Counted from the first letter of the stretch, positions 1,595 through 37,973 are shown. The stretch: 64,000 nt of DNA from an uncultured Candidatus Saccharibacteria bacterium (GCA_964404945.1 CAYOLY010000002.1:602-64601), one strand, 5' to 3'. The notes: generated from the sequence alone by a model not told the origin. Numbers and translations: made by a program.

Positions 1595-1809
1595 TTCATC
1601 CTCTCATTGATTACTCATATGGCTAGACAACGGAGGGGGAAACCCCAGAAACGTCCCTGCCCGTTTTCTACTGCATACATAATACCGTCAGTCTCAGCAA
1701 TACTAACAGCGTTATAAATATCAGCCGAAGCTGTTATACTCCACCAACCAGTTCCGCTATTATAACGTGACAAGCCCTCCGTAATTGAGACATACCCGCT
1801 GCGGACGAA
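1595..1809 (-). other. Orphan variable C-terminal cassette A (FISUMP/CLec-like tip)
   Basis: Frame 1809-1615 reads FVRSGYVSITEGLSRYNSGTGWWSITASADIYNAVSIAETDGIMYAVENGQGRFWGFPLRCLAI*; both anchors present; upstream in-frame TAA at 1849-1851, no start. Confidence 0.85.
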
Positions 1810-1823
1810 GAAAAGGCTAGTGT

Positions 1824-2040
1824 CTCGTCCGCAGCGGATCGAGTAGTGTTATTGTTAAATGGGAAGGTGGCTATTTGCGCAGTGTGGCAGATTATGGATA
1901 TTTATGGAGTAGTTATCGCCGATTAATGTTTCGTTTTTCTACTGCAAACGAAAACCTTCGTCCAACATATAGCAATGGATTTGATCTTTGGGGGCATTCC
2001 CTCCGTTGTCTAGCCATATGAGTAATCAAGAGGAGGATAG
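1824..2040 (+). other. Orphan variable C-terminal cassette B
   Basis: Frame 1824-2021 reads LVRSGSSSVIVKWEGGYLRSVADYGYLWSSYRRLMFRFSTANENLRPTYSNGFDLWGHSLRCLAI*; in-frame TAG at 1818-1820 just upstream. Confidence 0.85.
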
Positions 2041-2094
2041 CGGCTGGCAGTCGGGTGAATATGAAAATGAAGAAGCTTGTGTTATAATTTAGAC

Positions 2095-2844
2095 ATGGGC
2101 GATGTGGCAGAGGAGGAGAAGAAAGACGGCGCTTTGGTAGACAATAAGTCGTCAGCTGTGCCGGGTGAAAAGGCGGCGAGGGGCAGTTCTACGTTAGAAT
2201 TCAAGTCTGAAAATATCGGCAACTGGACTGCACATCAAGAAGGCTATTTTACCGAACAAAACCGTAAAGCTGCGGAGAAGCGCAAAAAGTCTGAACAAAT
2301 TCGCAAAAAAGTCAGGCCAATTGTGCTCGTGGTTGGTGGTTTGGTGGTGATTGGTCTAGCGGCTTGGGGAGTGATTGTGTTGGTCGCGTCGTCTACGAAC
2401 GAACTGCCACCGTTGCCAGATGATATTGCGCTAGGGGGTGAGGGTGCGCAAGAGGTGCAGGATCAGGCGCAAGATGTTTGGCAAGAGGCCTTGCAGGGCA
2501 CTGAACAAAATACGGGAGATGCTAGCAATGCGGAGCTCGGAGCGAAAGGTGTTGCGGCGGTGACGGAATATTTCGATAAACGCGCAGAGCAGGCTAGTGC
2601 AATGAGTGAAAAGATTGAGCTGACTTTGATTGAAATGGCGTTGTTCATTAGCAAAGGCAAGCCGGAAGCCGCAATCAAATCGTCGAAGCGGGTCTCATCG
2701 GACGAGATGAACGACGTACAGAAGAGCCAATATTATGGCATGTTGATGAATATTTATTATAGTTTGGGCGATATGGTGAAAGGTGATGAATATAGTAATT
2801 TACTCGAGCAAGTTAATAACGAAGATGCCGAGGTGGAGGGATAA
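2095..2844 (+). CDS. Hypothetical single-pass membrane protein
   Basis: One TM segment (IVLVVGGLVVIGLAAWGVIVLV) after a basic stretch; ATG 2095 is 6 nt after TGTTATAAT; stop overlaps next start. Confidence 0.7.
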   Translation: MGDVAEEEKKDGALVDNKSSAVPGEKAARGSSTLEFKSENIGNWTAHQEGYFTEQNRKAAEKRKKSEQIRKKVRPIVLVVGGLVVIGLAAWGVIVLVASSTNELPPLPDDIALGGEGAQEVQDQAQDVWQEALQGTEQNTGDASNAELGAKGVAAVTEYFDKRAEQASAMSEKIELTLIEMALFISKGKPEAAIKSSKRVSSDEMNDVQKSQYYGMLMNIYYSLGDMVKGDEYSNLLEQVNNEDAEVEG

Positions 2845-5800
2845 TGCGTAGGTGGTTAGTAATAAAGGCCCGAATCGTGGTGGCGATCCTTGGGGTAGCA
2901 ATGATGTTGTTGGCGGGCACACTAGTGAATCGGACGGAAGTGTCGGCGGATGCGGCGAGCTGCTTGTCGAGTAGTGGGGCGAGCAACGTCGAGTCGGTGC
3001 AGAATGCTTGTAATCTTTGCACTAAGTCGAGTACGTTGGCGCGCGGAACGCTTTGGATTAACGGGTCAGACAGTGAGCGAAATTCCAACACGATCGATGT
3101 TAAATATACGGAGGAAAATTCCGTTATAGATATTTATCTCTGGGGTCAGGTCTATTCTTGTGGGCAGGCTACGACGGCGAGTAATACCGCACATCATATC
3201 TGGATTGGTCGTGAGGGGCAGATGATTGGTAGCGGGTCGAATCTTCAGGGTGCGGTGGATTATATTAAAGAGAATAACGCCCAGAAATCACTCTATCGCG
3301 GCACTGGCACAGGAAAGACGCAGTCTTGGTACTCGCCGCTAGGTCAGCATGTTAGTATGAAGCTAGATGTGCAGAAGTTCAAGACCGATTCTGGCACACA
3401 ACACACGACCGAACAAGATCCGACTTATGGCACGGTCGAGGTCTACCGGGCAAAAGTTTCGATTAACCGGTGTTTCAAAAAATTAACGGGAGGGTATGTG
3501 AACCAGACTGGCTCACGCAGTGGGACTTGTTACGGTGACGACAGTGAGATTGTATTGAGAATTTTGCCGGTAGGTGATGACCAGTTTATCTCAAAATCGA
3601 AGGTGACGGCGGATTCTGGTTCGAGTGAGTCGGCGAGCTGGGGTGTGAACGCGGCAGATCTCGAAGTCCAAGCCGATGAGGATGGCAAGGCGACGGTAGC
3701 CTTTGCGCATCAGTTACGTTATGCGTCTGGTATGCCGAACGGTACTTACGAAGAGGCCTATACCCAGTGGACAATTAAGACTGACTTGCTTGCAAGAACC
3801 GAGTCAGAGACTTGGCGGACGCCGGGCGGTGTGACGAAAGAGACCGATTGGTTCACGACGGGCAATAAAGAGCTGAAAGTTGAGGTGCAGCTAGGTGAGG
3901 GCGAGACGGAGAAGCGGGTTTGCTCGACAATTTCTTACCAGACTAAGACCGTAAAATGGGACACTTCGAGCCCGCATAAAATGTTACCGGTGAACGATAC
4001 GGGTAATACGCAGGCTTGTGCGGTAGTGCGAAAAACTCCGAAGCAGAATACGGGCGGAATCGTCTTCTGGCCACAGTCTTCGGTCGAATCGGTGGCGGAA
4101 CGCGACGTCGTGAATCATAAGGAATGGACGACTGACGATAAAAACAAGGCGGATGGGGATATTGTCTCGATGCAACTTAGCACCGACTATAACCAAGCGA
4201 AGGCAAACTTCGAACATAAGATCCACGTCGATGTTGACTTAGGAGAGTATACCGTCGGCGCGAATGATACCTGGGATGCGACCAACATGTGCACAGAATA
4301 CTGGGTAAACTATGCCGATGGCACGACTAGCCCAAAGGAGAAGTTTTGCACTCCAAAGCTTAGCTCCGGTTCAAGTACTACCTCGGGCGAGAAGAGCGTG
4401 CCTGGTAGGCAAGGGTTCACAATTAATGTAGAAGGTAAGGTTATCGAAAAGCTAAATTACAAGCCTAAGACGATATCCGTAAAACGCGAGGAGCTGAAGA
4501 CGAATGCTTGTTATAACGCGGCCGGGGAGCAAACGGCCAGCACTGGATGCTCGTGGAATCCTGCACGTTACAAATACTATGCAGAGGAAAACTCTGGATC
4601 AGGGGAAGGTTATTCCTCAGCCGAAATTGAGTACGTTTCTCCAAATGAACCGGATGATAGTAATGGCCCGTCGTCGGGTAGCGGGGTGAGTGGCCAGCCG
4701 ATGTACGCCGGCGAAACTACGAGCATGACATGGTGGGCGCGGGCTAAGGCGATTGATACACGACGGATTGCTGAAATTCGGTCGGTGGCTTTTGAGGTGC
4801 TCTGGGATTTTAACTATAATGAAGTAGCGCTCTCAGGCGACCTAGATAAGAACCTGAAATATTCGGATAATCCGGGACGGAGCCAGTATGATCCGTGCGG
4901 CTATTGGCGGAATAGACTAGATCTCAGAGCGAACATGACGGACTGCACCTTGGTGAATCCCGGGGATAGCACGCTAAATAATGTGTTCGGCAATGGTTAT
5001 GTCGGCGAGCATTTGATGAATAGTATCTCTCAACTGTTGGTAGTGCCGGACCATGTCGGTGATAAATATTGCAACAGCTTTGCTTATAAGTGGCAGTACT
5101 ACTGGGGCGTGAAGCGCAAAAGCAGCGGAGATCAATGGGTTTGGACGCCGGAAAACCAGACCTACTGGACCCACTACGATGCGGCTTGCCGCACGATTGC
5201 TAAAAAGCCGTCCGTAGCGGTTTGGAATGGTGGCGTATTTACGAATGGTGGGATTATGACTTCATTAGCGCCACGCTATAACAATACGGCGATTGGTACG
5301 TTAGCAACGACGGCGAACGCGGCATACGGTTCGTGGACGGAGCATCTCGGAGTGGCGAATGGTCTAATCCAGAACTTCGGTACGGGTGGATCGTTGGCAT
5401 TCGGGTCGGGCGCCTTGTCGGTGAGCAATAGCTTTAATTCCCCGCTGACGATCCGAAATGACTTGCCGATTCTAGGTATGGCGAGTATCAATAATAATTC
5501 AGCTCTAGTTTCGCGGCTGGGTGATTATTTAGGCAACCTAGAGAGTGTTGAGCGGTTCGATGGCGATACATTAGAGATCAGTAGTAATTATACGATGCCG
5601 GCGACTTCATATAGCGATATCTATCAGTTACCGCAACAGGTTATCTATGCACCGAAAGCGACGAAGATTAATATTAGTGGTAACGTGACGCTGATCGACG
5701 CCTGGATCATCGCCCCGAATGCGACGATTGACACTTGCGCGGATTTCAGCGAGGACAGTACGGAAACGCGGCCGGCGATGGCACATGCTTGCGATCAGCC

Positions 5801-6053
5801 GCTTCGGATTAATGGCCCGGTGATCGCGAGCGCGTTAGAATTGAACCGCACCGGTGGGGCTGATATTACGAACGTGGGTGATAGATATACTGACGTTTTT
5901 GGCCCCATTTACTCTAACGCATGGGAGAAATACACCCCGGCTGAGGTTTTCAATCTAAGTGCAGCTACGTATCTCTGGGCTTATGCCCAGGCTGGGCGTT
6001 ACGGTTCTAGCTATACCGAATCCTACACGCGCGAGTTGCCGCCGAGGTATTAG
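2844..6053 (+). CDS. Large secreted Cys/Thr/Ser-rich surface protein (1069 aa), putative adhesin or pilus-associated
   Basis: Signal-peptide-like N-terminus, beta-rich composition, spaced Cys pairs, C-terminal ...ELPPRY. Function is inferred only. Confidence 0.65.
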   Translation: MRRWLVIKARIVVAILGVAMMLLAGTLVNRTEVSADAASCLSSSGASNVESVQNACNLCTKSSTLARGTLWINGSDSERNSNTIDVKYTEENSVIDIYLWGQVYSCGQATTASNTAHHIWIGREGQMIGSGSNLQGAVDYIKENNAQKSLYRGTGTGKTQSWYSPLGQHVSMKLDVQKFKTDSGTQHTTEQDPTYGTVEVYRAKVSINRCFKKLTGGYVNQTGSRSGTCYGDDSEIVLRILPVGDDQFISKSKVTADSGSSESASWGVNAADLEVQADEDGKATVAFAHQLRYASGMPNGTYEEAYTQWTIKTDLLARTESETWRTPGGVTKETDWFTTGNKELKVEVQLGEGETEKRVCSTISYQTKTVKWDTSSPHKMLPVNDTGNTQACAVVRKTPKQNTGGIVFWPQSSVESVAERDVVNHKEWTTDDKNKADGDIVSMQLSTDYNQAKANFEHKIHVDVDLGEYTVGANDTWDATNMCTEYWVNYADGTTSPKEKFCTPKLSSGSSTTSGEKSVPGRQGFTINVEGKVIEKLNYKPKTISVKREELKTNACYNAAGEQTASTGCSWNPARYKYYAEENSGSGEGYSSAEIEYVSPNEPDDSNGPSSGSGVSGQPMYAGETTSMTWWARAKAIDTRRIAEIRSVAFEVLWDFNYNEVALSGDLDKNLKYSDNPGRSQYDPCGYWRNRLDLRANMTDCTLVNPGDSTLNNVFGNGYVGEHLMNSISQLLVVPDHVGDKYCNSFAYKWQYYWGVKRKSSGDQWVWTPENQTYWTHYDAACRTIAKKPSVAVWNGGVFTNGGIMTSLAPRYNNTAIGTLATTANAAYGSWTEHLGVANGLIQNFGTGGSLAFGSGALSVSNSFNSPLTIRNDLPILGMASINNNSALVSRLGDYLGNLESVERFDGDTLEISSNYTMPATSYSDIYQLPQQVIYAPKATKINISGNVTLIDAWIIAPNATIDTCADFSEDSTETRPAMAHACDQPLRINGPVIASALELNRTGGADITNVGDRYTDVFGPIYSNAWEKYTPAEVFNLSAATYLWAYAQAGRYGSSYTESYTRELPPRY

Positions 6054-6085
6054 GCCGCGGGGAGAATGCTTTTGCTCGTAGTTGC

Positions 6086-7528
6086 TTACTCGGGTTGGAC
6101 AAAACTGTTTAATAAATTCTCACGGAGCTCGTCGAGGTTTAGGCTTTCGGGCCGCTCGGTTTGAACATAACTAAGATGCGGTTTTGATTTGAGTGCATCG
6201 CGCGTGGCGGCTGGGTAGAGTTTGGGGTCTGCGCCGAGATCGCGCAGTGCGATAAGATGGTGGTCGATTTCAAAAGAATACTTGATGGGCTGTCCGGCCT
6301 CGATGCCTTGGAAGATAGTGCCATGTGGTAACCAATCAACCATCGACATAGTTCCGACGGCACCAATCAAAACGAAATCACGCGTCGAGAGAATGTTTTC
6401 GAGTTCATTAGCCCAAAAGATATTAAGTTTTAGGGCGTCATGGTTTTCAAGAACTTGGTGAATTGGTTCTAGATATTTTTCGATAAGCTCTGTTTCGGAG
6501 CTGGCTGGGAGTAGGATAGTGAGTTCGCTCGGTAAATCTTTGGCGGATAAATCCCGGTAGAGATATTTAGCGTCAGGAAAAGCAGTTTCGACCGAAGCGT
6601 CTTTGACTTTGCCGAGATAAGCAGCGGAAGGCGCCTGGGCATCTTGCTTTGAAGTGCTAATTGAATAGACTTCGGCAGTATCTTTGCATTCAAATAAAGC
6701 GGTTTCGGGGTCGGTAGGGCTTTGGAAAACAAGGTGATAGGCGCCACTACAAATTGCGAAGGCACGCTTGCCGAGGTCTTCTGGGATGCCTTCGATTCGG
6801 GCGGCAAATTCTGCGTCGACTAGTTCTTCAATTGCAGTTTCGTCAATTTCGACGAGATTGGTTTTTTGGAATATATAAATACCGGTAAAGATAGCCTCAG
6901 CGGTAGCAGAGAGGATTAGTCCGACGAGGATTAGGTGCATGATGAGACTGGGTTTTTGGTGTGAAGAATATTGTTTTGAGATGAGCAACGCTCCAGTCCA
7001 GAAAATAAAGATACCCATGAGCGTCGTGATGGCGAGCTGGTTGGGTTGGAAAGTGATAAGGAAAGCCGCTACCCAGCCAATACTGAACAGGTGTGCGGCG
7101 CCAGCGACCAAAACGGCAGTGAGACGAGCAGTGCGCGGGCGGCTTTTCCAGGCTAAGACAAGCGCGGAGACATTTACGAGCGAAAGTAACCCTGAGCTTA
7201 GTAACATGACTTTAAGCACAGTGGGATAGTAATCCGTAGTGACCCATTCATAATTTTTAGTAATCATGAGCAGGATCATCTGCATTGGTCCGATCAGGAA
7301 GGCTAAGATTGATGCCATTACAAAACTGAAAGTGCTCAAGGTCAAAGGCCAGTGGCTTTCGGTACGGGCTTCAGCCTGCTCGTTGATAAGCTCGCTCGGC
7401 CAGAGTAACTCCGAAGAGGTTTTTTCTTCCTCCGAGGTATTAACTGTGTAATTCGGGCGGTGGTCAAGCGACGGCCAGAGTAAATCGTCGGTATTCAGCG
7501 AATTTTTAGTCTTTTTCGGAGCCTCCAT
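6086..7528 (-). CDS. Hypothetical multi-pass membrane protein with soluble C-terminal domain
   Basis: 480-aa ORF with about 5 hydrophobic segments; TGCTATAAT 8 nt upstream of ATG. Confidence 0.7.
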   Translation of the reverse strand: MEAPKKTKNSLNTDDLLWPSLDHRPNYTVNTSEEEKTSSELLWPSELINEQAEARTESHWPLTLSTFSFVMASILAFLIGPMQMILLMITKNYEWVTTDYYPTVLKVMLLSSGLLSLVNVSALVLAWKSRPRTARLTAVLVAGAAHLFSIGWVAAFLITFQPNQLAITTLMGIFIFWTGALLISKQYSSHQKPSLIMHLILVGLILSATAEAIFTGIYIFQKTNLVEIDETAIEELVDAEFAARIEGIPEDLGKRAFAICSGAYHLVFQSPTDPETALFECKDTAEVYSISTSKQDAQAPSAAYLGKVKDASVETAFPDAKYLYRDLSAKDLPSELTILLPASSETELIEKYLEPIHQVLENHDALKLNIFWANELENILSTRDFVLIGAVGTMSMVDWLPHGTIFQGIEAGQPIKYSFEIDHHLIALRDLGADPKLYPAATRDALKSKPHLSYVQTERPESLNLDELRENLLNSFVQPE

Positions 7529-7715
7529 ATGTCATTATTATAGCATAAGCGGAGCAAAAGTTTGGGTTTGGTGAGTAACTATTTTGTTTTGCTACCAACA
7601 AGATAGATAATACCGAGCGCAACCTTTGGATGAAGTAGGGTAAGTATATTCGTTATTTCTTAGACTGTGGGCTTATGATATAATTGTATCTGTAAAGTGA
7701 ATTGAAAGGGTTGTT

Positions 7716-8705: not shown

Positions 8706-8736
8706 GCGGATGGCGTTTCGCAAAATAGCATAAAGT

Positions 8737-8763
8737 TAGCCCCGGGCGGAAAGCTCGGGGCTA
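8737..8763. terminator. Hairpin terminator between convergent genes
   Basis: TAGCCCCGGGC-GGAAA-GCTCGGGGCTA, 11-bp stem with one G.U pair. Confidence 0.7.
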
Positions 8764-8778: not shown

Positions 8779-10020
8779 TTAGGGCTTGTTAATCTGGGTG
8801 TCGTTGCCGTCAGACAGGGCGTCAGCGAGCTCCTGCAGAGCTTCCATGATGCCGGGGTTACAGTCGGCGGCGTCCAGATCTTCGCGGGTCATGATCTGGC
8901 TCAGCATCACGCTCAGATGATTGCAAACACGGACATTGACCAGGATGTGCTGGAAGAAATCCTTCTGCTTCCAGGTCGGCATGTTCTTGTAGTAGGCCTC
9001 GATCTGCCAGGGATGCTCCTTGTTATCGGCGTTGTAGATTGCACCGGGAAGCGGGCAGCCGTTGAGGTTTTGATAGCCAGCAATGTCATCAACGGTGACA
9101 AGCTCCGTCAGCTTTTTGCTGTCACTGGTGCGGCAGGCCCGGATCAGCTCGGCCCAGGTACGGATCTCGCAGGGGCGAAAGTGTAGCAAATCCAGGTGCT
9201 TTGCCCGGGTAGCCAACCACTGCAGCTGAGCGATCAGCAGGTGCCCAGCAGACTTGATGTAGCCCTGCTTGACTTGACTGTCGATCATGGGGACGATTTT
9301 GGCAGGTGAGGCAGCTTCGCGTAGCTCGTCAAAAGTGCTGATGATTACATTCCGATAGTCATAGAGCCGGCCGACAGTATCGGTCTCGGCGTCATAGTGG
9401 ATTTCCGTCAGGTAACGGTTATTAATCTCGGGATCGTTAATCAAAATGCTTTGACGAATCAGCTCCTCCATGATGTAGCGATCGGAGCTGCTGATGCGGT
9501 AGGACGGCTTGCCGTTCAAACTGAGGTTGAAATAGCGGCAGTAGTCGTATTCCCACCGTTTCGACTCATCCAAGGCCAGATACTCGGAGCGGGTGATTTC
9601 CTGCTCGGTATGGAGGTGTCTGATCTTGCGATCGGGCCAGCCGTCGTGGGTCTTGCCGGGCAGAGGACGGAACATTTTGTCTTCCAAGGGATCGCCGTTT
9701 TCGTCGATAGCCTGCCCCAGCATATTGATTTTGGGGAGGTCGAAGATAAAGGCCAGGAAGCTCATCTTGTCCACGTCGTAGAGCTTCAGCATCTGCTGGG
9801 CGTCCTTGCGCCGGCGTGTCCGCTGCTGCTCATCGCTCTGAACCAGGAGCGCGATGATGTGCTGCTGGTTGCTGGTAGAAAGGATGTTGGGGTACTCGCT
9901 GGCCGGAGCCAGCTGCAGGGCAGTTATCATCGACCGGGCGCCCTCGAAAAAGGCGCGGGCCTCGCTGGACTTGGGGTTCTGCAGGTAGTAGCTGAGGTTG
10001 GTACGGATGTTGGTTCCCAT
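8779..10020 (-). CDS. Hypothetical protein (413 aa), GC-rich, foreign-looking
   Basis: Long ORF; AAAGGTGG SD before ATG 10020; spot check 9781-9840 gives 40/60 G+C. No motif recognised. Confidence 0.75.
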   Translation of the reverse strand: MGTNIRTNLSYYLQNPKSSEARAFFEGARSMITALQLAPASEYPNILSTSNQQHIIALLVQSDEQQRTRRRKDAQQMLKLYDVDKMSFLAFIFDLPKINMLGQAIDENGDPLEDKMFRPLPGKTHDGWPDRKIRHLHTEQEITRSEYLALDESKRWEYDYCRYFNLSLNGKPSYRISSSDRYIMEELIRQSILINDPEINNRYLTEIHYDAETDTVGRLYDYRNVIISTFDELREAASPAKIVPMIDSQVKQGYIKSAGHLLIAQLQWLATRAKHLDLLHFRPCEIRTWAELIRACRTSDSKKLTELVTVDDIAGYQNLNGCPLPGAIYNADNKEHPWQIEAYYKNMPTWKQKDFFQHILVNVRVCNHLSVMLSQIMTREDLDAADCNPGIMEALQELADALSDGNDTQINKP

Positions 10021-10310
10021 AGGAATCCACCTTTCTGCGCTGTTCGCGCTCAAAAATATTACGCAACAGAGTTATTGCGCAGACCGGCCATTTTGGAGTG
10101 TGCCCTCTTTTGGCTAGTGGATTTCAAAATAAACGATCTGCACAATAATCTATTGTGAATATTGAATGCGAGATAAATCTATTAGCTGTAAAAGAACGTT
10201 AATGGTGCATACGGGGTATGACCATTAAAGTGTTTGGAGTACTAACGTAAGGCAGTACTCCTTTTCTAGGGACTAGAAAAACAAAATTGCTATTTTAGGC
10301 CCATATCTCC

Positions 10311-10557: not shown

Positions 10558-10640
10558 CCCTTTGCTGGTTGTAGGCGTAAGTTTGCTAGCAATATATGCT
10601 TTGCAAAGTTCTAGCATATTGTTCGCCAAACTCCCTATCC

Positions 10641-10863
10641 CTTCATCCTCCCTATGATTACTCTATATGGCTAGACAACGGAGAGAGAAGCCCCAACCAC
10701 GGTTAGCAAAAGAAACGGAATTACCATAATCGACTGTCATACCGTTGCTTCTTAAGGTGAAGGAATTTGCACTATTAATTGCGCTACTAGACCAATAATG
10801 CAAATTCGTACTAGCCTGTTCTACAATGTAGTTATGCCTATTCCCCCTCCCGCTGCGGACGAA
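10641..10863 (-). other. Orphan variable C-terminal cassette C
   Basis: Frame 10863-10663 reads FVRSGRGNRHNYIVEQASTNLHYWSSSAINSANSFTLRSNGMTVDYGNSVSFANRGWGFSLRCLAI*; preceded by SPLF, then in-frame TAA at 10879-10881. Confidence 0.85.
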
Positions 10864-10886
10864 GAAAAGGGGGCTTGCTTAATCCT

Positions 10887-11104
10887 CTTCATCCTTCCTA
10901 TGATTACTCTATGGCTAGACAACGGAGGGGACGACCCCACATGCGTTGGTACCCTGCACTGGTTAGAAAAGTGCCGTTATCTCCTAAGAACTCAATTACA
11001 TAAGCAAAGTTTGCGTTTGAAGCTACCATACTTCTGAGTGTACCTGTTAATGAGGCGTCAAATAATACACCTTGATTTGGTCGAGCATACCCGCTGCGGA
11101 CGAA
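10887..11104 (-). other. Orphan variable C-terminal cassette D
   Basis: Frame 11104-10904 reads FVRSGYARPNQGVLFDASLTGTLRSMVASNANFAYVIEFLGDNGTFLTSAGYQRMWGRPLRCLAIE*; upstream in-frame TAG at 11147-11149, no start. Confidence 0.85.
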
Positions 11105-11105
11105 A

Positions 11106-11121
11106 ACCGAACAACCTGTGA
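11106..11121 (+). repeat. 16-bp motif ACCGAACAACCTGTGA, copy 1
   Basis: Exact reverse complement of 37996-38011; also one arm of the hairpin 11111-11138. Confidence 0.7.
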
Positions 11122-11223
11122 CTAGGATCGCAGGTTGTGAAAAGCGCTAGCGGGAGTAGAAATATGCAGAAAAACGCCAAAACCTGTGCCCCTGATTACA
11201 GCCTGTGCGGCTTTACTAGACTC

Positions 11224-11444
11224 TTCGTCCGCGGCGGATTTGTTAATGTATGGCCGGCTTACGGGCGGGGGAACTCTAGTGTAGTTGGTCAATATTTACG
11301 AGTATGGTCAGATTATAGTGATGGGCGACCATTAATTTTACGCGTTGATGGGGGGATTAGTCTAGAACCATCCAGAGCCGATTCAACACATTTTGGCTTC
11401 TCCCTCCGTTGTCTAGCCATATGAGTAATCAAGGGAGGATGGAA
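11224..11444 (+). other. Orphan variable C-terminal cassette E
   Basis: Frame 11224-11424 reads FVRGGFVNVWPAYGRGNSSVVGQYLRVWSDYSDGRPLILRVDGGISLEPSRADSTHFGFSLRCLAI*; both anchors present. Confidence 0.85.
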
Positions 11445-11451
11445 GTAAAAC

Positions 11452-12867
11452 CTATTTCGAAATGGTAAAACCAGAGAATGAGTTCGCGAGGCCGTGCAAC
11501 TGAGCAAATTCGGCAAAAAGGCGAGCAGTGGCTTGGCTGGGGTCGGTGTCGACGATCGTAACAGCGGAGTCGTTTCGAGGGAGGAAGCTGGCGGCGGAGG
11601 CATAAGCTTCACGCAGGTGTTCGGTATAACGTGGGTCGGCAGTGGCAAAATCTTGCAAAAAGGCTTCTAGAAATTCCTCATCGGTGCGATTCTTGAGAAT
11701 CAGGTTGCTGGTCGGGTATTCTGCACCAAAGCAAAATTCGTAAACATGGTGACGCTGCTCCAGCTTGGAATACTTAGTTTTAGAATCGTCCAGTGCCAAG
11801 ATCAGGCTGACGATTGCACGGAGATTCCAACGCTGGTCAGGACGACTTACGAGTAGCCAAATTAGCGCAGCAGTAAGAACTTTTGGATTAAGGTTTGGCG
11901 CAGTAATAATATTTGAATTCGCGAAACTTTGTGGTAGGAGCGTGATACCCTGGAATTTGATCTCGTCGGCTTTTTCGGAAGCAATGAGAAAAGCTTGTTC
12001 GGGAAAATTTTTCGCCATAAGCCCGAGTCGCGAGAGCTCGGCCGAACGACGATCGCCAAAAAGGTCGATCGGTGGTTGGAGCTTGACTAAAGCATCGATT
12101 TCGCCGACGAATGTGCGTAAGGTGCGGGCACGAAAAGGATGATAGTAAAAGGCCTGGCCGCCAAGTTTGCGGACCGGTAGGATGTCTGAGCGGCGACTGT
12201 CGCCGATATGTAGGTTAGTCTGCAACTTAAAGTCGGTCCCGAAGAGTTGGCCGTCGACGATTTTGCGATAGAGACTACCATCAGATTTATGAGCTTGGCA
12301 GTTTACGCCGCTGACACCATCGTTGAAAATACCGATTTTAAAGAAATCTAAAAAGTATTGAATTTGATCGCGACTATACGGTTCGTCAGTGATGAAATAG
12401 ACTTTGAGTTCAGGCAAAGCCTTTTTAAGCTCGGTGATGGCATGAAGGAGAGCGGTGTTAGGCCTAAGGATTTCGGCGGTGGCTTGAAGCTGGTCACGCA
12501 GCATGGTCTGGTGGATGAGAGTGCGTTTACTGTCGTCAAGCTCAAGATTGTAGCGTTCGGCGATAAAATCGATCATCTGCGAGAAGTTGGTTTCGTAGTC
12601 GACTACAAAATCATTACTGCCTTTTGCGCTACGGAGATAGTTTAGCTCGTGCCGAGTGAATTCATGCCACTCAATTAGTTCGAGCGGGGAAAGTTTAAGG
12701 CCGAGGAGATCAGGGAGGCTTTCGTGCCATTTCTTTGCGACCTTAATCGTGTGCTGTTGCTCTGGCCAATAGCGGTAAAGCAAAACCGTATCAAAAACAT
12801 CCAAAGTTAGGCTTTGGAGGTGACTTTCTCGTATTCTTTTGGCAAGTTGATTATAAATCTGCGGCAT
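11452..12867 (-). CDS. HAD-superfamily hydrolase-like protein
   Basis: Motif I LTLDVFDTVL, KSDGSLY, motif IV LHIGDSRRSD. Confidence 0.7.
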   Translation of the reverse strand: MPQIYNQLAKRIRESHLQSLTLDVFDTVLLYRYWPEQQHTIKVAKKWHESLPDLLGLKLSPLELIEWHEFTRHELNYLRSAKGSNDFVVDYETNFSQMIDFIAERYNLELDDSKRTLIHQTMLRDQLQATAEILRPNTALLHAITELKKALPELKVYFITDEPYSRDQIQYFLDFFKIGIFNDGVSGVNCQAHKSDGSLYRKIVDGQLFGTDFKLQTNLHIGDSRRSDILPVRKLGGQAFYYHPFRARTLRTFVGEIDALVKLQPPIDLFGDRRSAELSRLGLMAKNFPEQAFLIASEKADEIKFQGITLLPQSFANSNIITAPNLNPKVLTAALIWLLVSRPDQRWNLRAIVSLILALDDSKTKYSKLEQRHHVYEFCFGAEYPTSNLILKNRTDEEFLEAFLQDFATADPRYTEHLREAYASAASFLPRNDSAVTIVDTDPSQATARLFAEFAQLHGLANSFSGFTISK

Positions 12868-31069: not shown

Positions 31070-31110
31070 AACAGTTTATATTATAGCATAGTCTAGAGCG
31101 ATGCGGTCGA

Positions 31111-31716: not shown

Positions 31717-31717
31717 C

Positions 31718-32593
31718 TTAGATAGCGATATACATTATATAGAACGCAATACCGTTTGAAAGCATGTGCAGCAAGATACCGCTCCAGATCGTACCAGTTA
31801 CCTCGCGCAAGCTACACATAACGACGCTCAGGGCGAAGGTGGCTACGCCGACGTTCCATTGCCCGTGTAACGCGCCAAATAGCACCGAAACCAACAGTGT
31901 CGCCGAAACAGCACCAAGCTTAGTCCGCAGCTTGCCATAGAGCCAACCACGCATCAGAATCTCTTCAGCAATTGGGGCGACCAAGACCAGCGCAATCATC
32001 GCCATTACGCGATCGCCAGTCGTGATGAAATAGCCAAAGCCAACATCTTGCGCTTGATTCTTGTTGAACCATTCAAAGACCGACATTGCTGCCGTGAGTA
32101 CGTTTGCTAAGATAGCGTAAGCGACGTAGCCAATCGGAGCCAGCCCGATGTCGACAAAGGTCGGGAATTCACCCATGCCCATCTCGTTACGATCGGTGGC
32201 CAGAGGATTGTTTTTGGTCGAGATCGGGGCGTTTAATAGTTTTTCTTCGGCTGCAGCTTCAGCCTGAGCTGTAGTTTTGCTGTCGTCTTCGGCCGCTCGA
32301 TGACGAGCTTTAGCTTGACGCCAGAGACGTGGCGGAAGCCAGATTACTAATACAATCGTTAATGTGTACTGCAGGATACTATACACTAAAGTCCAGAGCG
32401 GCTTAGTCACGTTCTCGCCTAGCAACATCTGCATCGGGTAAGCAATAACAATCTGACTGGCCGTAAAACTGAGCGCTACCCAAGCAAGCAAAAAAACGAC
32501 GAAAGCGAACTTTTCTTTATCAAAGTGCCACCTCCGCTCGGGTTTCGTCGGTTTCGCAGCTTTTTTGGTAGTTTTCTGAGTTTTGCTAGGCAT
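31718..32593 (-). CDS. CPBP (CAAX/Abi) intramembrane metalloprotease
   Basis: APIAEEILMRG, FGALH, HMLSN. Confidence 0.85.
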   Translation of the reverse strand: MPSKTQKTTKKAAKPTKPERRWHFDKEKFAFVVFLLAWVALSFTASQIVIAYPMQMLLGENVTKPLWTLVYSILQYTLTIVLVIWLPPRLWRQAKARHRAAEDDSKTTAQAEAAAEEKLLNAPISTKNNPLATDRNEMGMGEFPTFVDIGLAPIGYVAYAILANVLTAAMSVFEWFNKNQAQDVGFGYFITTGDRVMAMIALVLVAPIAEEILMRGWLYGKLRTKLGAVSATLLVSVLFGALHGQWNVGVATFALSVVMCSLREVTGTIWSGILLHMLSNGIAFYIMYIAI

Positions 32594-32596
32594 GGT

Positions 32597-33832
32597 TTAG
32601 AATAACTTAATTATATCCAGCACCGTAATAATTACGATGAGCGCCAACAAGACCAAGAAGGCACGAGAAACAATTTTCTCTTCGGTTTCTTTAGTTAACT
32701 TTTTACCACGAAGCTTATACAATGCGATCAGCAGCCAACGACCACCGTCCAACGCCGGAATCGGCAAAACATTCATGCAGGCGAGCGACACCGAGATGAG
32801 GGCAGCCAAAAAGGCTAGGTTGGGCGCGCCAGCCTCGGCAAAGGCCGGGAACATTACGCCTACGATACCCACTGGGCCAGAGACCGAATCGCCAACTGTG
32901 GCAAGATCTTGTTTTCCATCCTCCCTAACTTCTGCGCTCGGACTAAATTGCCGCACTACGCCCGAAACCAGGTTCCAGACCAAGTCTCCGAGTCCCTTGA
33001 AGGTTTCACCCGTAAGTTGTACCGTTAAACCGACGCCAACGATCGGGGCTGACCAAGTTGAACGGATAAAGCGCTGGCCGTATTCTTGCATCTCGATGCC
33101 GAGGCTGTACTCTGCATCGGACGGGTTCAAAGTCGCAACGAGTTCCTTCCTCTCGGCATTCTCACCACGTTCAACAACATAAACCACTTCTTTCCCGGCG
33201 TTTTCCTTGCCGTAGTTTATGATATCAGACGCCGAAGTTACGGTTTGGCCATCACCAAAACTGATAATTTCGTCTTTTGCCTCAAAGCCTGCCTTTTCGG
33301 CCGGCGAACCTTCAAGCACTTTCACCACAACGACACCATGGCCAACAATCTCTTCGGTGGCGTCCTGGCCTAGATAGAATTGCCCTGGGAGAAATTGCGG
33401 CATACCTGTAAAGGCTAAAACGGTGAGTACGATGGCGGCTACTAGCCAGTTCATTGCAACGCCGCCAAACAAAATTTTTGTTTTCGCCCAAAAACTCGAT
33501 GCACCAAAAGTCCCTTTACGCGTATCAGCGTCGGACTCGCCATCCATCGAACAGAACCCGCCGATTGGTAGCCAGTTAATGCTAAAAACCAGATTATCCT
33601 GAGGCTTTTGCCAGTCAGACTTCGGGAGCCGAAGCCATTTCTTCTCGGTTTTATCACCTTTTTTCCACTTCGGGTTACGCACCCAAGCGATTGCGCGTGG
33701 TGGAAAACCAATACCGAATTCCTTCACGGTTACACCGTTACGGCGTGCCATTATAAAATGCCCGAGCTCGTGCGCAACGATGAGTCCCATCAAAATCAAT
33801 AGGCCGATAATTACCCCAAATACAACATTCAT
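32597..33832 (-). CDS. rseP: RIP/M50 zinc metalloprotease with PDZ domain
   Basis: HELGH, PIGGFC, GSPAEKAG, NVLPIPALDGG. Confidence 0.9.
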   Translation of the reverse strand: MNVVFGVIIGLLILMGLIVAHELGHFIMARRNGVTVKEFGIGFPPRAIAWVRNPKWKKGDKTEKKWLRLPKSDWQKPQDNLVFSINWLPIGGFCSMDGESDADTRKGTFGASSFWAKTKILFGGVAMNWLVAAIVLTVLAFTGMPQFLPGQFYLGQDATEEIVGHGVVVVKVLEGSPAEKAGFEAKDEIISFGDGQTVTSASDIINYGKENAGKEVVYVVERGENAERKELVATLNPSDAEYSLGIEMQEYGQRFIRSTWSAPIVGVGLTVQLTGETFKGLGDLVWNLVSGVVRQFSPSAEVREDGKQDLATVGDSVSGPVGIVGVMFPAFAEAGAPNLAFLAALISVSLACMNVLPIPALDGGRWLLIALYKLRGKKLTKETEEKIVSRAFLVLLALIVIITVLDIIKLF

Positions 33833-33893
33833 GAGACTATTTTATCACACTTTCAAACACTAGCATTAACTTTTTCGGCGACATCTGACATAA

Positions 33894-34574
33894 TTATTTG
33901 CCGAAACGACGCTGACGATTATTATACTCGTCGATAACAGATTTCAGATCTTCTTTAGTAAAGGCCGGAAAATATTTATCTATAAAGAGAAACTCTGCAT
34001 AAGCGGCACGCCAAAGCATAAAACCAGATGTACGTTCCTCGCCGCTTGTCCGCACGACAAAATCACAATCTGGAATCTCGGGATGATAGAGATAGTTGCG
34101 AAAGTTCTCTGGCGTATAATCACGGTCGTCAGACTCGACCATTTTTTTGGCAGCATCAGCAATTTCCCACTGTCCACCGTAGTTGAAGCAAAAACAAACC
34201 GTCAAGCCAGTATTGTCTTTTGTTGAGGCTTCGGATTCCATGAGATCTTGCCAAATTTTTGGATCAACGTGTTCCGGACGACCCAAAATTGCGATACGCA
34301 TGTTGTATTTTTGGGCCTTTTTCGTCAAGCGACCGATTTCGGAAGCTACCATACCCATAAGGTAGTCAATTTCTTCTTGAGAGCGGCCCCAGTTTTCGGT
34401 GCTGAAAATGAAGAAAGAAGCATACTTAACGTCGGTGCTGGCTAGCTCCTCGATGATCATCTCGACGACTTTTGAGCCCTTGCGATGCCCCTCCAAGGTC
34501 GGCAGTCCCTGCTCTTTAGCCCAGCGACGATTCCCGTCGGCAATAAAACCAAGGTGTGTGAGTTGGTTTGCCAT
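33894..34574 (-). CDS. uppS: Polyprenyl diphosphate synthase
   Basis: HLGFIADGNRRWA, FSTENW, RTSGEERTSGF. Confidence 0.93.
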   Translation of the reverse strand: MANQLTHLGFIADGNRRWAKEQGLPTLEGHRKGSKVVEMIIEELASTDVKYASFFIFSTENWGRSQEEIDYLMGMVASEIGRLTKKAQKYNMRIAILGRPEHVDPKIWQDLMESEASTKDNTGLTVCFCFNYGGQWEIADAAKKMVESDDRDYTPENFRNYLYHPEIPDCDFVVRTSGEERTSGFMLWRAAYAEFLFIDKYFPAFTKEDLKSVIDEYNNRQRRFGK

Positions 34575-35116
34575 TAGATCGCCATGATCTCCGCAGTTTT
34601 AACCTTGAATAGCGTATCAATCTTGTCGGTAAAATTCTTCGTTAACTCATCAATACTCTTTTCCGCACGCTTAACGGTGTCTTCCGGTAGTTCAGCTCCT
34701 TTAAGCTCCTTGCGAGCATCTTCACGAACATTGCGAATAGCAACCTTAGCATCCTCAACTTTCGCAGAAGCGGTCTTAACAATCTCCTTACGACGTTCCT
34801 CGGTTAGCGGCGGGACCGGCACGCGTACGACGTGACCATCGTCAGACGGGTTTAACCCGAGGGTTTGGTCTTCACGAATTGCCTTAGAGATAGCCTGAAT
34901 ATTGGTTGGGTCAAACGGAGTAACCTGCAACATAGTCCCGCCTGAAGCGGTTACGTTTGCAACCTGGTTTAATGGCATGAATTGGCCATATGCTTCGACT
35001 TTGACATTGGCAAGCATGTCAGGGTGTGCGCGTCCAGTGCGGACTTTTTTCATTTCGTCTTGAAAGCGTTGCACAGCGGCTTCCATAGCTTTGCGATATT
35101 CATTGTCGTCAAACAT
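34574..35116 (-). CDS. frr: Ribosome recycling factor
   Basis: RTGRAHP, LGLNPSDDG, VPPLTEERR. Confidence 0.95.
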   Translation of the reverse strand: MFDDNEYRKAMEAAVQRFQDEMKKVRTGRAHPDMLANVKVEAYGQFMPLNQVANVTASGGTMLQVTPFDPTNIQAISKAIREDQTLGLNPSDDGHVVRVPVPPLTEERRKEIVKTASAKVEDAKVAIRNVREDARKELKGAELPEDTVKRAEKSIDELTKNFTDKIDTLFKVKTAEIMAI

Positions 35117-35135
35117 ATAACCTCCTAGGTTGATT

Positions 35136-35759
35136 TTACTCAGTTACGCCAAGTTCAAGGCGCTTAAACTGACGAACAGTAATATTTTCACCAGTTTTTG
35201 CGATAGCTTCTTTAATAAACTGGGCCACGGTCAAGCTGTCGTCCATAATGTAGGGCTGCTCCATGAGGACTTTGTCCGAAAAAGCTTTTTTAACTTGACC
35301 ACTAATAATCTGATCTTTCATGTTTTCTGGGCCGTGGAAGTTTTCTTCAAACTCTTTCTTTTTGGCATTCAAAACGTCTTCCGGCACATCCTCGATCGTG
35401 ACATAGAGCGGAGACATCGAAGCAACCTGCATTGCGATCTTATGCGCAAGGTCCTTAAACTCGTCAGTCTTGGCGACGAAGCTAGTTTCGCAGTTCACTT
35501 CAACGATTGCACCGAGGCGACCGTCGTGGATATAAGAGTCGATAATTCCCTCGCGAGTCTCGCGGTCGCCGCGTTTCTCGGCTTTGGTCATACCTTTCTT
35601 GCGCATGGCCTCGAGAGCTTTATCAAAATCGCCTTTCGCCTCAACAAGAGCCTGCTTAGCATCGGTCAAACCAACGCCCGAGAGCTCTTTCAGCTTCTTA
35701 ATTAGCTCAATCGAAATTGCCTTAACTTCGCCGGCCTTTTCTTTTAATTCTTGGCTCAT
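35136..35759 (-). CDS. tsf: Elongation factor Ts (short form)
   Basis: IKKLKELSGVGLTDAKQAL, EVNCETSFVAK. Confidence 0.95.
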   Translation of the reverse strand: MSQELKEKAGEVKAISIELIKKLKELSGVGLTDAKQALVEAKGDFDKALEAMRKKGMTKAEKRGDRETREGIIDSYIHDGRLGAIVEVNCETSFVAKTDEFKDLAHKIAMQVASMSPLYVTIEDVPEDVLNAKKKEFEENFHGPENMKDQIISGQVKKAFSDKVLMEQPYIMDDSLTVAQFIKEAIAKTGENITVRQFKRLELGVTE

Positions 35760-35815
35760 ATTTCCTCCTTGTTTTTTGTGAGTTTGGTGACAAAAGTGAA
35801 GATTTTAAGCTTAGC

Positions 35816-36514
35816 TTAAGCTTCTTTCTTGTTTTCGCCTTCCTTAATGGCGGCGACGATGTAATCCAAAATCAACTGAACGGATTTGATTGCGTCGTCG
35901 TTTGCCGGGATGACATAGTCAATATTGGTCGGATCAACATTGGTATCAACAATGGCAAATACTGGGATTTTTAGGGTGTTAGCCTCTTTGATGGCATTCT
36001 TGTCTTGGCAAGCGTCCGCAATAACCAGCGCAGCCGGCTGTTCGGTCATGTCCTTGATGCCGCCATAGCGTTCGTTAAGCATATCAATTTCTTCCTGATA
36101 GCGTTGAACTTCAAGCTTTGAATAGCGAGCTTCCAACTCGCCAGACGCCATACGACGTTCAAGGTCTTTGAGCTTCTTAATCTGCTTATTTACGGTGTCG
36201 ACGTTGGTCAAAATACCACCAACCCAGCGCACGGTAACGTATGGCATATCGACCGACTCGGCAGCAGCCTTCGTAGTGTCCTTAAGCTGTTTCTTAGTGC
36301 CGACGAAGAGAATCTTCTTGCCACTTGCGGCAATCTTAGTGAGCTCCGGAAGAGCGGTCTCAAGAGCTTCGACAGTTTTCTCGAGATTAATAATGTGCCC
36401 CCCCTGGCGTTTGCTATGAATGTATGGCGCCATCTTTGGGTGCCAACGGCTAGTTTTGTGTCCGAAGTGCGCACCCGCTTCGAGCAACGCCTTCATATCG
36501 ACATCTACGGTCAT
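35816..36514 (-). CDS. rpsB: 30S ribosomal protein S2
   Basis: GAHFGHKTSRWHPKM, FVGTK, RWVGGILTN, PANDDAIKS. Confidence 0.97.
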   Translation of the reverse strand: MTVDVDMKALLEAGAHFGHKTSRWHPKMAPYIHSKRQGGHIINLEKTVEALETALPELTKIAASGKKILFVGTKKQLKDTTKAAAESVDMPYVTVRWVGGILTNVDTVNKQIKKLKDLERRMASGELEARYSKLEVQRYQEEIDMLNERYGGIKDMTEQPAALVIADACQDKNAIKEANTLKIPVFAIVDTNVDPTNIDYVIPANDDAIKSVQLILDYIVAAIKEGENKKEA

Positions 36515-36714
36515 GATATGGTTATCCTTTCACTTAGACCATGGGATTGATGCTAACATACATCAGGAAACCTCCCACGGCTGTTTCGTTTATATTGTTA
36601 TGCTACCATTATAGATAATCTTTGAAATATTGTCAAGCCCTGAGGCTTAGTGAAAAACATAGTGAAAATCGGGGTTTACACCGTAGGAAAAGTTTGGTAT
36701 AATTGGCAACAGTT

Positions 36715-37053
36715 ATGAGTAAAAAAGTTTCACAACCGCAAGATTATCGCTATGTTGTCTTTATGGATGAGGCGGCGAATTTTTCGTTTTTGACTCGTTC
36801 TTCGGCACAAAGCGAAGAGACTATCAAGTGGACCGATGGGCAGGAATACCCTCTAGTGAAGGTGCAGATTTCTTCGGCTTCTCACCCGTTCTTTACCGGT
36901 GAAGAGAAGATTATCGATACTGAGGGTCGCGTTGACCGCTTCAAGGCTCGTGCCGAACGGGCTGCTAAGCTTCGCGCTTCTCTTGGCAACAAGACCAAGA
37001 AGGCTGAAAAAGAGGCCGAGAAGAAAGCCGCCAAAGCTACGGCTGAGAAGTAG
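36715..37053 (+). CDS. rpmE: 50S ribosomal protein L31 type B
   Basis: [32 protein letters not shown]; ATG 36715. Confidence 0.92.
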
Positions 37054-37060
37054 TCTTATT

Positions 37061-37092
37061 AAAAGAGGCCAGTCTTTGAACTGGTCTCTTTT
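37061..37092 (+). terminator. rpmE terminator
   Basis: AAAAGAGGCCAG-TCTTTGAA-CTGGTCTCTTTT. Confidence 0.75.
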
Positions 37093-37138
37093 TGTGCGAA
37101 AGAATAGTTGCCGGCTTTCAGTGGGTCGAACTATAAGA

Positions 37139-37166
37139 AATGGGACGGCACTATGGCCGTCCCATT
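37139..37166 (-). terminator. Hairpin downstream of the 81-aa gene
   Basis: Perfect 11-bp IR AATGGGACGGC/GCCGTCCCATT with 6-nt loop. Confidence 0.65.
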
Positions 37167-37237
37167 AGAGGTAGAGTAGGGTTCCGTTGTCCTGCGCGTG
37201 GCGTGAACAACTGCTGTCGGCTACTTACGCTGGAAGA

Positions 37238-37483
37238 TCAGCCGCCGTTGCGACGCAGCAGATCGTCCAGCGCGGAACCGCTCATGCCCTGGGCCCTCGC
37301 CTTGCTGAGCAGCTCGGTGCCGTCGCGGGCAACGATACCGGTGGTGCGGTCAGTGATCTGACCACGGAGCTGGGAGGCGCGGTAGTCGCGCGAAGCATCG
37401 ACGGAGCTGAACTGGTGTCCGCCAAAAGAAAACTGGGTGTTGCTGGGAAGGATTTCATTGTTATTAAGAAGCACTTCATACAC
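37238..37483 (-). CDS. Hypothetical 81-aa protein, GC-rich, foreign-looking
   Basis: AAAGGAAG SD before ATG; spot check 37321-37380 gives 41/60 G+C; own promoter and hairpin. Confidence 0.55.
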   Translation of the reverse strand: MYEVLLNNNEILPSNTQFSFGGHQFSSVDASRDYRASQLRGQITDRTTGIVARDGTELLSKARAQGMSGSALDDLLRRNGG

Positions 37484-37712
37484 TTCCTTTCAGTATTTTT
37501 GGCTGAGCTTTCCGCATCCTTGCGATAGGCTGCAGCTGACAACCACAGGCGGTTGCGGGGTGGAATGCACATCCTTGCGGCTTTAACACTAAAGCATCGG
37601 AATCACCTCTTTCTAAAAGTACTCATGCGGGCATTACCCGCTGCCCTTCGGCCTCGTTGGCGCGAAGTGATATATCCTTGGATGCAAAAGCAACTTTGGC
37701 TATACTGTTGGG

Positions 37713-37741
37713 ATTTTATCACAGGAAGAAGGGTGTGTCAA
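37713..37741 (-). promoter_or_regulatory. Sigma70-type promoter
   Basis: TTGACA-17 bp-TAAAAT with TGTG extension, just downstream of the cassette F tail. Confidence 0.7.
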
Positions 37742-37765
37742 ATGTAGAATGCAGCGAACAGCTAC

Positions 37766-37973
37766 CTTCATCCTCCCTTGATTACTCTATGGCTAGACAA
37801 CGGAGGGGTTGAGCCTCGTATCTTACGGTGGTTCGGCTAGTCCATATTTGGCTTGAATCGGCTTTGGAATATAAATAATAGGAGCTAGCTACGCGTGAGG
37901 AAATGACATAAGCACCATCGCTGATATATTCAAGTGCTGGCCTATAATAACTAGGTCTTCCGCTGCGGACGAA
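37766..37973 (-). other. Orphan variable C-terminal cassette F
   Basis: Frame 37973-37782 reads FVRSGRPSYYRPALEYISDGAYVISSRVASSYYLYSKADSSQIWTSRTTVRYEAQPLRCLAIE*; both anchors present; no start upstream. Confidence 0.85.

Follow-up and report, generated by a model that had tools for sequence, protein, structure and literature searches.

In Neisseria, one expressed pilin gene (pilE) receives sequence by non-reciprocal transfer from many promoter-less partial copies (pilS) lying at several loci, and in the vlsE/vls system of Borrelia and the tprK system of Treponema a surface protein is likewise varied from silent cassettes. Here we analysed a stretch of 64,000 nt from an uncultured Candidatus Saccharibacteria bacterium (GCA_964404945.1, CAYOLY010000002.1:602-64601; the whole stretch is called the window below), in which a first-pass annotation, made from the sequence alone, pointed out six short open frames with fixed nucleotide anchors (cassettes A to F) and took them for donor tips of an adhesin gene located elsewhere. 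In our opinion it is likely that the six units are part of a genome-wide library of start-less cassettes, which would serve one secreted lectin-like protein by means of copying bounded by the anchors.

The Sma/Cla repeat of Neisseria is a conserved element just past the coding end of the expressed and silent copies, and the post-stop part of the cassette 3' anchor resembles it. Unlike the approximately 19 pilS copies, which have extensive similarity to a type IV pilin gene and convert it in segmental mosaics, the present cassettes number at least 83 per related genome, concern a lectin-like domain, and exchange whole tips between anchors of 13-45 nt. The exchanged region of vls is bounded by 17-bp direct repeats, similarly to our anchors, and tprK has tens of donor sites; however, the vls and tprK donors are clustered near one locus and their segments are mixed, whereas here the donors are dispersed and silent sites overwrite each other. 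Mycoplasma genitalium (MgPa/MgPar) is another minimal genome in which a few per cent of the DNA consists of dispersed partial adhesin copies, although these are kilobase copies similar to the expressed operon, and their recombination is often reciprocal and segmental, unlike that of the cassettes here.

Other relevant systems vary the C-terminus of a binding protein. Diversity-generating retroelements (DGRs; Bordetella phage Mtd, Treponema TvpA, and those of the candidate phyla radiation) likewise vary the last ~60 residues of a lectin-like (here putative) fold, which end in ...G.S.RC, with tips rich in Ser, Gly, Tyr and Asn, but they generate diversity anew from one template, while the tips described here are stored pre-made, length-variable and selected. 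The R64 shufflon (pilV, Rci) and the invertible tail-fibre segments of phages (Mu G, P1 C, p15B Min) share with our cassettes the alternative adhesin C-termini, the short conserved junction and tips in opposite orientations. Their segments are contiguous with the gene and invert reciprocally, whereas the cassettes are dispersed and copied non-reciprocally, and no Rci-like gene was seen next to them; moreover, the flanks of the cassettes stay in place when the middle changes, and their neighbours are housekeeping genes. Integron cassettes, in which an open reading frame (ORF) with attC is arrayed by intI at attI, differ as well, as the present units are dispersed and start-less and their anchors are not inverted repeats.

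Within the window, the 18-mer CTCCGTTGTCTAGCCATA is found exactly six times, compared with zero occurrences in 100 shuffles, and TCGTCCGCNGCGG marks all six predicted unit starts, so the units lie where they had been placed and have common anchors. In the alignment of the six units, the 5' conserved block is tttcTTCGTCCGCAGCGG, also written (t)ttcTTCGTCCGCAGCGG, and the 3' block consists of CCCTCCGTTGTCTAGCCATA, a gap of 0-2 nt and GAGTAATCA..GGGAGGATG; the anchors measure 13-20 nt (5') and ~45 nt (3'), and neither is an inverted repeat of the other. Conservation is confined to the anchors, and the middles cannot be aligned as nucleotides. All six frames are free of stops (peptide FVRSG...LRCLAI(E)-stop), and five of them have an in-frame stop 1-14 codons 5' without any ATG, GTG or TTG, which agrees with the first description. 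The 3' anchor, also as described, continues past the stop, by ~22 nt, which brings the whole unit to ~215-225 nt.

The library of six is only the window's share. A scan for the 3' anchor (one genome per species) gave at least 81 blocks, those listed being all in two mouse-gut Saccharibacteria metagenome-assembled genomes (MAGs), CANEKB01 and CARBES01 (CANEKB and CARBES below), and the blocks retrieved (~270 kb per MAG) contain at least 83 cassette copies in each. The window belongs to a third genome, ~80% identical to these two, and run X21, which contains the window, has ~100 anchor-bearing contigs. Scans of Joint Genome Institute metagenomes gave zero matches for the expression-site junction (see below) and zero for the 3' anchor, and a scan of viral contigs gave zero matches. 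The cassettes are scattered over the chromosome in both orientations, in intergenic positions, singly or as head-to-head pairs. The distance from anchor to anchor spans 143-212 nt and changes by multiples of three only (always 2 mod 3), by which the frame is kept, and 147 of the 148 copies having both anchors are stop-free. Stops in the sense frame were met in 1/154 copies, while each of the five other frames has them in 143-154/154. Upstream, the in-frame open length (median 14 codons) does not differ from that in control frames (14 and 13), and conservation is lost sharply outside the anchors, which are themselves invariant at synonymous sites and beyond the stop in ~150 copies from three species. 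That the middles share almost nothing holds for nucleotides, where only orthologues and a few paralogues are similar; it does not hold for the protein, since the tips, rich in Ser, Gly, Ala, Tyr, Asn and Thr, have the common scaffold FVRSG...G..WSS.A..AY.L.F..PS..R.WGFSLRCLAI.

Comparison of 29 orthologous pairs of silent cassettes between CANEKB01 and CARBES01 gave a ratio of nonsynonymous to synonymous substitution rates (dN/dS) of 0.21 (dN 0.024, dS 0.115), with 58/28/122 differences at the three codon positions and a sole indel of 3 nt. Because of this low ratio, the excess of third-position changes and an indel that keeps the frame, the silent copies are kept functional as protein; they are under purifying selection and are not decaying remnants. 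It has also to be considered whether there is no programmed system at all, the units being leftover duplications of a 3' end or a gene fragment carried by an element resembling a miniature inverted-repeat transposable element (MITE), and the differences between alleles being recombination accidents. Such an explanation would fit pairs that end in inverted 3' anchors, as in terminal inverted repeats, the MITE-like elements in many spacers, and a rate of silent-site replacement that is low on an absolute scale. Nevertheless, decay predicts stops and frameshifts instead of open frames with lengths in multiples of three, copies of a mobile element would be similar while the middles are unrelated, and ~80-180 different in-frame tips in a genome of ~1 Mb require selection on protein products, so this explanation is hardly credible.

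The predicted expressed gene was recognised in the relatives, as only one copy per related MAG has a long upstream ORF and all other copies resemble control frames. In CARBES this gene (L061) encodes a protein of 706 aa with a signal peptide, ending in FVRSG-tip-LRCLAI(E)-stop, and its orthologue in CANEKB (L069) has at least 405 aa and is ended by the contig edge. Two further alleles are P0001 (L082), situated 3' of infB, and P0002 (L084). The long gene with the same anchors that the donor proposal called for is therefore present in all four. Their tips are unrelated and stand between identical anchors, while the bodies are 93-99% identical, except for that of P0002 (68%, at the protein level). 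In the three-way DNA alignment the identity is 91-100% per 100 nt up to exactly TTCGTCCGCAGCGG (one divergent 100-nt segment having 86-94%), falls to ~40% in the tip and is regained at CCCTCCGTTG. In addition, the expressed tip of L082 matches a silent CARBES cassette (L027:224-436, paired head-to-head with another cassette) at 200/213 nt (94%), and this match is limited to the anchors and the middle, which speaks for the proposed swapping of tips into the expressed gene. Paralogues of this gene in the same genomes have fixed tips (...RCLVNTAE) and no anchors. A second expression site, hinted at by Logan contigs, was resolved as the silent cassette L067 (1165-1400, +), whose upstream ORF of 75 codons is not coding-like. 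The Logan contigs end at the expression-site junction because 34 nt of it (TTGCACTTAATCCTCTTTTCTTCGTCCGCAGCGG) recur in L067; as 14 of these nucleotides are gene body, sequence also flows from the expression site to a silent site.

The silent sites themselves show how tips are replaced. Positional orthologues of CANEKB and CARBES were defined through the 3' flank, and among 19 orthologous silent sites 7 hold the same cassette and 12 hold unrelated middles between flanks that are 87-98% identical; wherever both flanks were comparable, both are conserved (e.g., CAN_L049_-3675 and CAR_L043_-3712). Four of the displaced middles were found at another site of the other genome, and exact duplicates of middles occur at unrelated loci inside one genome. 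One polarised event concerns cassette P of CARBES, a copy of which went from L076 to L023:625, a direction that follows from CANEKB sharing P at L076 and having a different cassette at the orthologue of the recipient; in the second polarised event, cassette R was copied in the same way from L023:4537 to L041:7614. In both silent-to-silent events the donor is retained at its ancestral site, donor-specific variants of the distal 3' anchor were copied together with the middle, and the 5' junction falls within the 13 nt of the 5' anchor. Another duplicate, the third, has anchors that differ as early as nucleotide 6 of the 18-mer, which means that the end points vary. Taken together, the duplicates, the retained donors and the junctions inside the anchors indicate that copying is non-reciprocal and bounded by the anchors, and reciprocal swapping was rejected because the exact duplicates indicate copy-paste. 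The replacement spans the whole segment from anchor to anchor, and no segmental mosaic conversion was seen. The 0/1/2-nt gap of the 3' anchor, tried as a linkage marker, was uninformative, as it changes independently of middle and flank.

Two window cassettes have close counterparts in other places. The middle of cassette F (37782-37973) is 93.5% identical to that of a non-syntenic cassette on CANEKB contig 23 (L047:1804-2015), with 7 of 10 differences at third positions, against a backbone identity of ~80%. Three rat-gut runs (X25, X28 and X34) contain cassette A (window 1622-1838) with 100% identity, but its flank differs there by 5% and its partner is a different one; in the same runs the middle of cassette B has zero depth. 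This suggests that cassettes A and F move between strains or species, or that they are unusually conserved. In close relatives (L085-L093; fmt 90-97% identical), a tRNA gene without any cassette occupies the site where CARBES has, following a DUF5663 gene, the M58 cassette pair; gain or loss of cassette sites thus takes place between close lineages.

The invariance of the anchors could also be explained by dedicated site-specific recombination, similar to a shufflon or to cassette exchange, in which the palindromic CCGCAGCGG core and the 3' anchor would be the targets of a recombinase and the segment between them would be exchanged. Anchors fixed at synonymous sites and past the stop would be expected from it, a 5' anchor too short for efficient general recombination would pose no difficulty, and the head-to-head pairing with a fixed 11-nt spacer, met 14 times, as well as the exchange of whole modules and never of segments, are in favour of it. 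Conservative recombinases, on the other hand, exchange reciprocally, whereas the donor is retained here; the 3' anchor has a distal end point in two events but one within its first 5 nt in the third; at the loci examined, neither the cassettes nor the expression site have a recombinase gene next to them; and simple inversion or excision between dispersed sites in both orientations would scramble the chromosome. We therefore hold a dedicated recombinase to be very improbable.

A further link leads to DGRs, and here the analogy drawn by the first-pass annotation gained substance, because in another lineage (GCA_964397215, L083) a template repeat and a reverse transcriptase (RT) cover the same protein segment. 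There, an AAC-rich inverted copy of the homologous tip, with the same boundaries as the tip segment (TTCGTGCGCAGCGG ... TCTCTCCGCT), adjoins an RT of 396 aa that passes RVT_1 and contains IGNLTSQ (IGxxxSQ) and YVDD (YVDDF). The DGR-like module as a whole (L083:14734-17311, -) consists of a 319-aa protein of unknown family, the RT and the template-like repeat. The differences between template and nearby tip are not adenine-specific (26/94) and are mostly C>T and G>A, for which reason the real target of the template may be elsewhere. A third-lineage cassette has 75% nucleotide identity to the L083 template repeat, with mismatches at 36% of A and 13% of C positions.

On these grounds one could suppose a retrohoming process descended from a DGR, in which the cassettes are alternative template repeats and cDNA of a cassette transcript replaces the tip at anchor-flanked sites, the long 3' anchor having the role of the initiation of mutagenic homology (IMH) site and the short 5' anchor providing homology for 5' integration. 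The L083 arrangement, the concentration of the third-lineage mismatches at template adenines, and the asymmetry of the anchors together with non-reciprocal copying can be put in its favour, and the published model of DGR homing is consistent with such a short 5'/long 3' asymmetry and with non-reciprocal copying. However, neither a homologue of the RT (by tblastn) nor an AAC-rich template-like cassette was found in the window or the ~540 kb of the two MAGs; related (paralogous) cassettes differ by ordinary transition-rich substitutions without adenine bias; descent from one template is contradicted by middles of varying length that do not align; and even in L083 the template-tip differences lack adenine specificity. 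Retrohoming of this kind is improbable. A wider version, with archives, throughout Saccharibacteria, of ~80-180 pre-selected tips of a lectin at a fibre tip, lineage-specific anchors that are fossil DGR boundaries, and copying by an anchor-specific machinery derived from a retroelement, we consider unlikely; were it true, it would amount to a multi-template, non-mutagenic retrohoming that writes into silent and expressed sites alike.

Other lineages, with their own anchor variants, present the same pattern. A profile of the six window peptides retrieved 133 short proteins (58-116 aa) from many assemblies, which are ORFs set by gene callers over cassettes and include other anchor families (...GFPLRCLSTVLGM-stop and ...YPGSA-stop), as well as pairs sharing an identical body end and carrying different tips. 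Another lineage (L094, L095) has the anchors TTCGTGCGCAGCGG ... CCCCTCCGCTGCCTTAGTACTGTATTAGACATGTAG and at least 4 cassettes in 20 kb. A gene with a CdiA_C domain (5524-5922) stands among these cassettes (L094/L095 5100-10240); in L095 a prophage (integrase, portal, holin) starts ~450 nt past a cassette, where L094 has a permease gene.

To return to anchor-bounded copying from a silent library, which we favour, the mechanism could be as follows. The units would be spare copies, promoter-less and in five cases of six also start-less, of the final ~55-70 codons of a protein whose gene would lie beyond the window's ends (in relatives it follows infB). Besides its signal peptide, this protein would have a beta-sandwich of the pilin/TasA type and a lectin-like domain of the Fib_succ_major type that contains a long insert. 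The DNA of a tip would be copied between anchor-flanked sites with the donor kept, the join falling inside the invariant anchors, 5' at TTCGTCCGCAGCGG (often after CTTTTC) and 3' at CCCTCCGTTGTCTAGCCATA..GAGTAATCAAGGGAGGATG, and a copy arriving at the expression site would display a new binding tip on an unchanged body. The exchange may be a gene conversion by the general recombination machinery, for which the anchors would serve as minimal homology; ruvA and an addA-like gene, both of general recombination, are in the window, and such recombination fits the variable end points, although the 5' anchor is very short for it. In this way the cell can probably change what the protein binds, and the benefit might be retargeted binding to the host bacterium or to other ligands and/or escape from gut antibody. 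We infer that switching is frequent enough to matter within populations.

Several points weigh against this reading. By the standards of RecA-type recombination in E. coli and B. subtilis, a 5' anchor of 13-20 nt is short. Fixed replacement at silent sites is only ~10x the substitution rate per base (12/19 sites at dS 0.115), if neutral. The expression site is not within the window, where we assume for the window's own genome a site like that of its relatives, and the donors of the expressed tips of L061 and L069 were not found in their own genomes among the matches listed. The evidence for swapping is between strains and not within a clone. The cassettes are presumed silent on account of the missing starts, and in the RNA runs the 5% of words that matched represent the shared anchor only. 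Finally, a Foldseek search with the whole model gave no match for the tip domain, and thus no structural confirmation of the lectin fold.

As regards the protein family, the suggested resemblance to FISUMP/Fib_succ_major found support in a homologue, P0009, which scores 35.2 on PF09603 (threshold 33.9) over model positions 50-186 of 187, with the tip included; P0003, with 32.1, is just under the threshold. The expression-site proteins themselves reach 16-17 bits on the Fib_succ_major/FISUMP models (PF09603, TIGR02145; thresholds 34-42), and the cassette peptides do not match these models. Homologues are widespread in Saccharibacteria and many of them have a precomputed PF09603 assignment, so that the proposed Fib_succ_major membership rests on transitive homology. 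In the AlphaFold2 model the predicted local distance difference test (pLDDT) is 75.5 overall and 85-93 in the tip, which is composed of beta strands; a single-sequence model of the C-terminal part has a pLDDT of 37, and a profile search against PDB sequences gave no match. The whole-model search matches the N-terminal domain only, to chaperone-usher and TasA-type fibre subunits with weak E-values, and residues ~50-210 of P0001 (model mecd208c90e8e) resemble the donor-strand-type fibre subunits CsuA/B, CfaB and TasA, again with weak Foldseek E-values. Judging from the model, the expressed protein may be a fibre subunit or fibre-tip subunit.

Head-to-head pairs hold 104 of the ~157 complete copies and fall into spacer classes. 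The 11-nt class has 14 pairs, in which one partner carries the extended anchor CTTTTCT|TCGTCC that is also present at the expression site; the 36-55-nt class carries a hairpin, and the 80-149-nt class carries the MITE-like element with the ends CCTGTTCGG...CCGAACAGG. This element is ~110-130 nt long with inverted ends (L007, L017, L027, L028, L044, L065, L070, L078, L081), a shorter recurrent spacer hairpin is GCTCCCAnTTTTCAAAAAnTGGGAGC, and a MITE-related motif, CCGAACAACCTGTG, stands directly upstream of cassettes D/E and F (Table 1). The cassette sites of the window (3/3) are also cassette sites in CANEKB and CARBES, with different contents.

Table 1. Cassettes, spacers and neighbouring features in the window (positions counted from its first nucleotide).
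Feature	Position	Strand	Remarks
Cassette A	1591..1809	-	FVRSGYVS...WGFPLRCLAI-stop; 5' anchor 1796-1809; 3' anchor 1591-1635
A/B spacer	1810..1823	.	14 nt between head-to-head 5' anchors
Cassette B	1824..2045	+	LVRSG...WGHSLRCLAI-stop; in-frame TAG one codon 5'
Flanking ORF region	2077-6053	+	no Pfam match
Flanking ORF region	6086-7528	-	no Pfam match
Flanking ORF region	8779-10053	-	no Pfam match
Cassette C	10639..10863	-	FVRSGRGN...WGFSLRCLAI-stop; TAG stop, 2-nt gap form; tandem with D
Cassette D	10883..11104	-	FVRSGYAR...WGRPLRCLAIE-stop; TAA stop, 0-nt gap form
D/E spacer	11105..11223	.	119 nt, head-to-head D and E; holds CCGAACAACCTGTG
MITE-related motif	11107-11120	+	CCGAACAACCTGTG, upstream of D/E
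ORF P0166	11164-11424	+	86 aa, called over cassette E
Cassette E	11224..11448	+	FVRGG...FGFSLRCLAI-stop; variant anchor CGCGGCGG
Flanking ORF region	11452-12867	-	no Pfam match
Cassette F	37761..37973	-	FVRSGRPS...EAQPLRCLAIE-stop
MITE-related motif	37997-38010	-	CCGAACAACCTGTG, upstream of F
AddA-like gene	38013-41333	-	complete helicase-nuclease gene

The 3' anchor of cassette A spans its TGA stop and the post-stop GAGTAATCA..AGAGGATG. The A/B spacer together with the anchors forms a palindrome with 13-bp arms (fold energy -17.8 kcal/mol, z = -6.4); apart from this trivial palindrome of head-to-head pairs, the fold-energy test found the anchor folds unremarkable. Cassette E, whose site has a positional orthologue in CANEKB (L059), is the only window copy with upstream in-frame starts: it has 34 open codons upstream, with GTG at -29 (11137) and ATG at -20 (11164, after GGGAG), over which gene callers set P0166. 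This start is probably fortuitous, but translation in place is conceivable for E alone among the window copies. Cassette F sits 40 nt 3' of the AddA-like gene, and it was ruled out as the C-terminus of that upstream ORF of 1106 aa, which is a complete UvrD/PD-(D/E)XK protein.

A non-coding RNA or tRNA-like element was ruled out, as Rfam (gathering thresholds) and ARAGORN gave no match in the window, and an alternative genetic code hiding upstream ORFs was rejected, since long ORFs in the standard code run through the whole window and all three stop codons (TAA, TAG, TGA) occur among the upstream stops. Around cassettes C to E, promoter and terminator sites are no more frequent than in shuffled sequence. 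The window genes near the cassettes are housekeeping ones (rpsB, tsf, frr, uppS, rpmE, rplS, ruvA, ychF), and ORFs of 255, 1069, 480, 424 and 471 aa without a Pfam match at E <= 0.01 flank the cassette clusters. The interval 1496-1606, between a gene with a GmrSD_C domain and cassette A, is covered in run X21 at 3-20x the unique depth, and runs X28 and X34 show a different sequence joined across 1406-1575; a further repeated or variable element is thus indicated next to cassette A.

A description of this system was not found in full-text searches of the literature on Saccharibacteria with gene conversion or cassettes, FISUMP, DGR or antigenic variation, and antigenic variation in Patescibacteria has merely been speculated on (PMC11809585). 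What the sequences suggest is cassette-based surface variation in a new phylum, on a new protein module and with an unusual architecture: whole-module replacement between very short invariant anchors, overwriting of silent sites and head-to-head pairs. The finding would add a phylum of commensal epibionts to the few animal pathogens in which such variation is known, and it links DGR mutagenesis and stored cassettes on one protein segment in related lineages. On the practical side, the cassette repeats explain the fragmentation of Saccharibacteria MAGs, and gene callers report many spurious proteins of 60-115 aa from them.

Saccharibacteria and other Patescibacteria live attached to host bacteria, and host recognition and host switching are central questions about them. 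At least 83 spare tips, or ~2% or more of the DNA, make the lectin-like tip the variable feature in which a genome of ~1 Mb has invested most, and it may have a role in host specificity. The protein is therefore a concrete candidate for the determinant of host or ligand recognition, and the cassettes are a natural library of alternative specificities.

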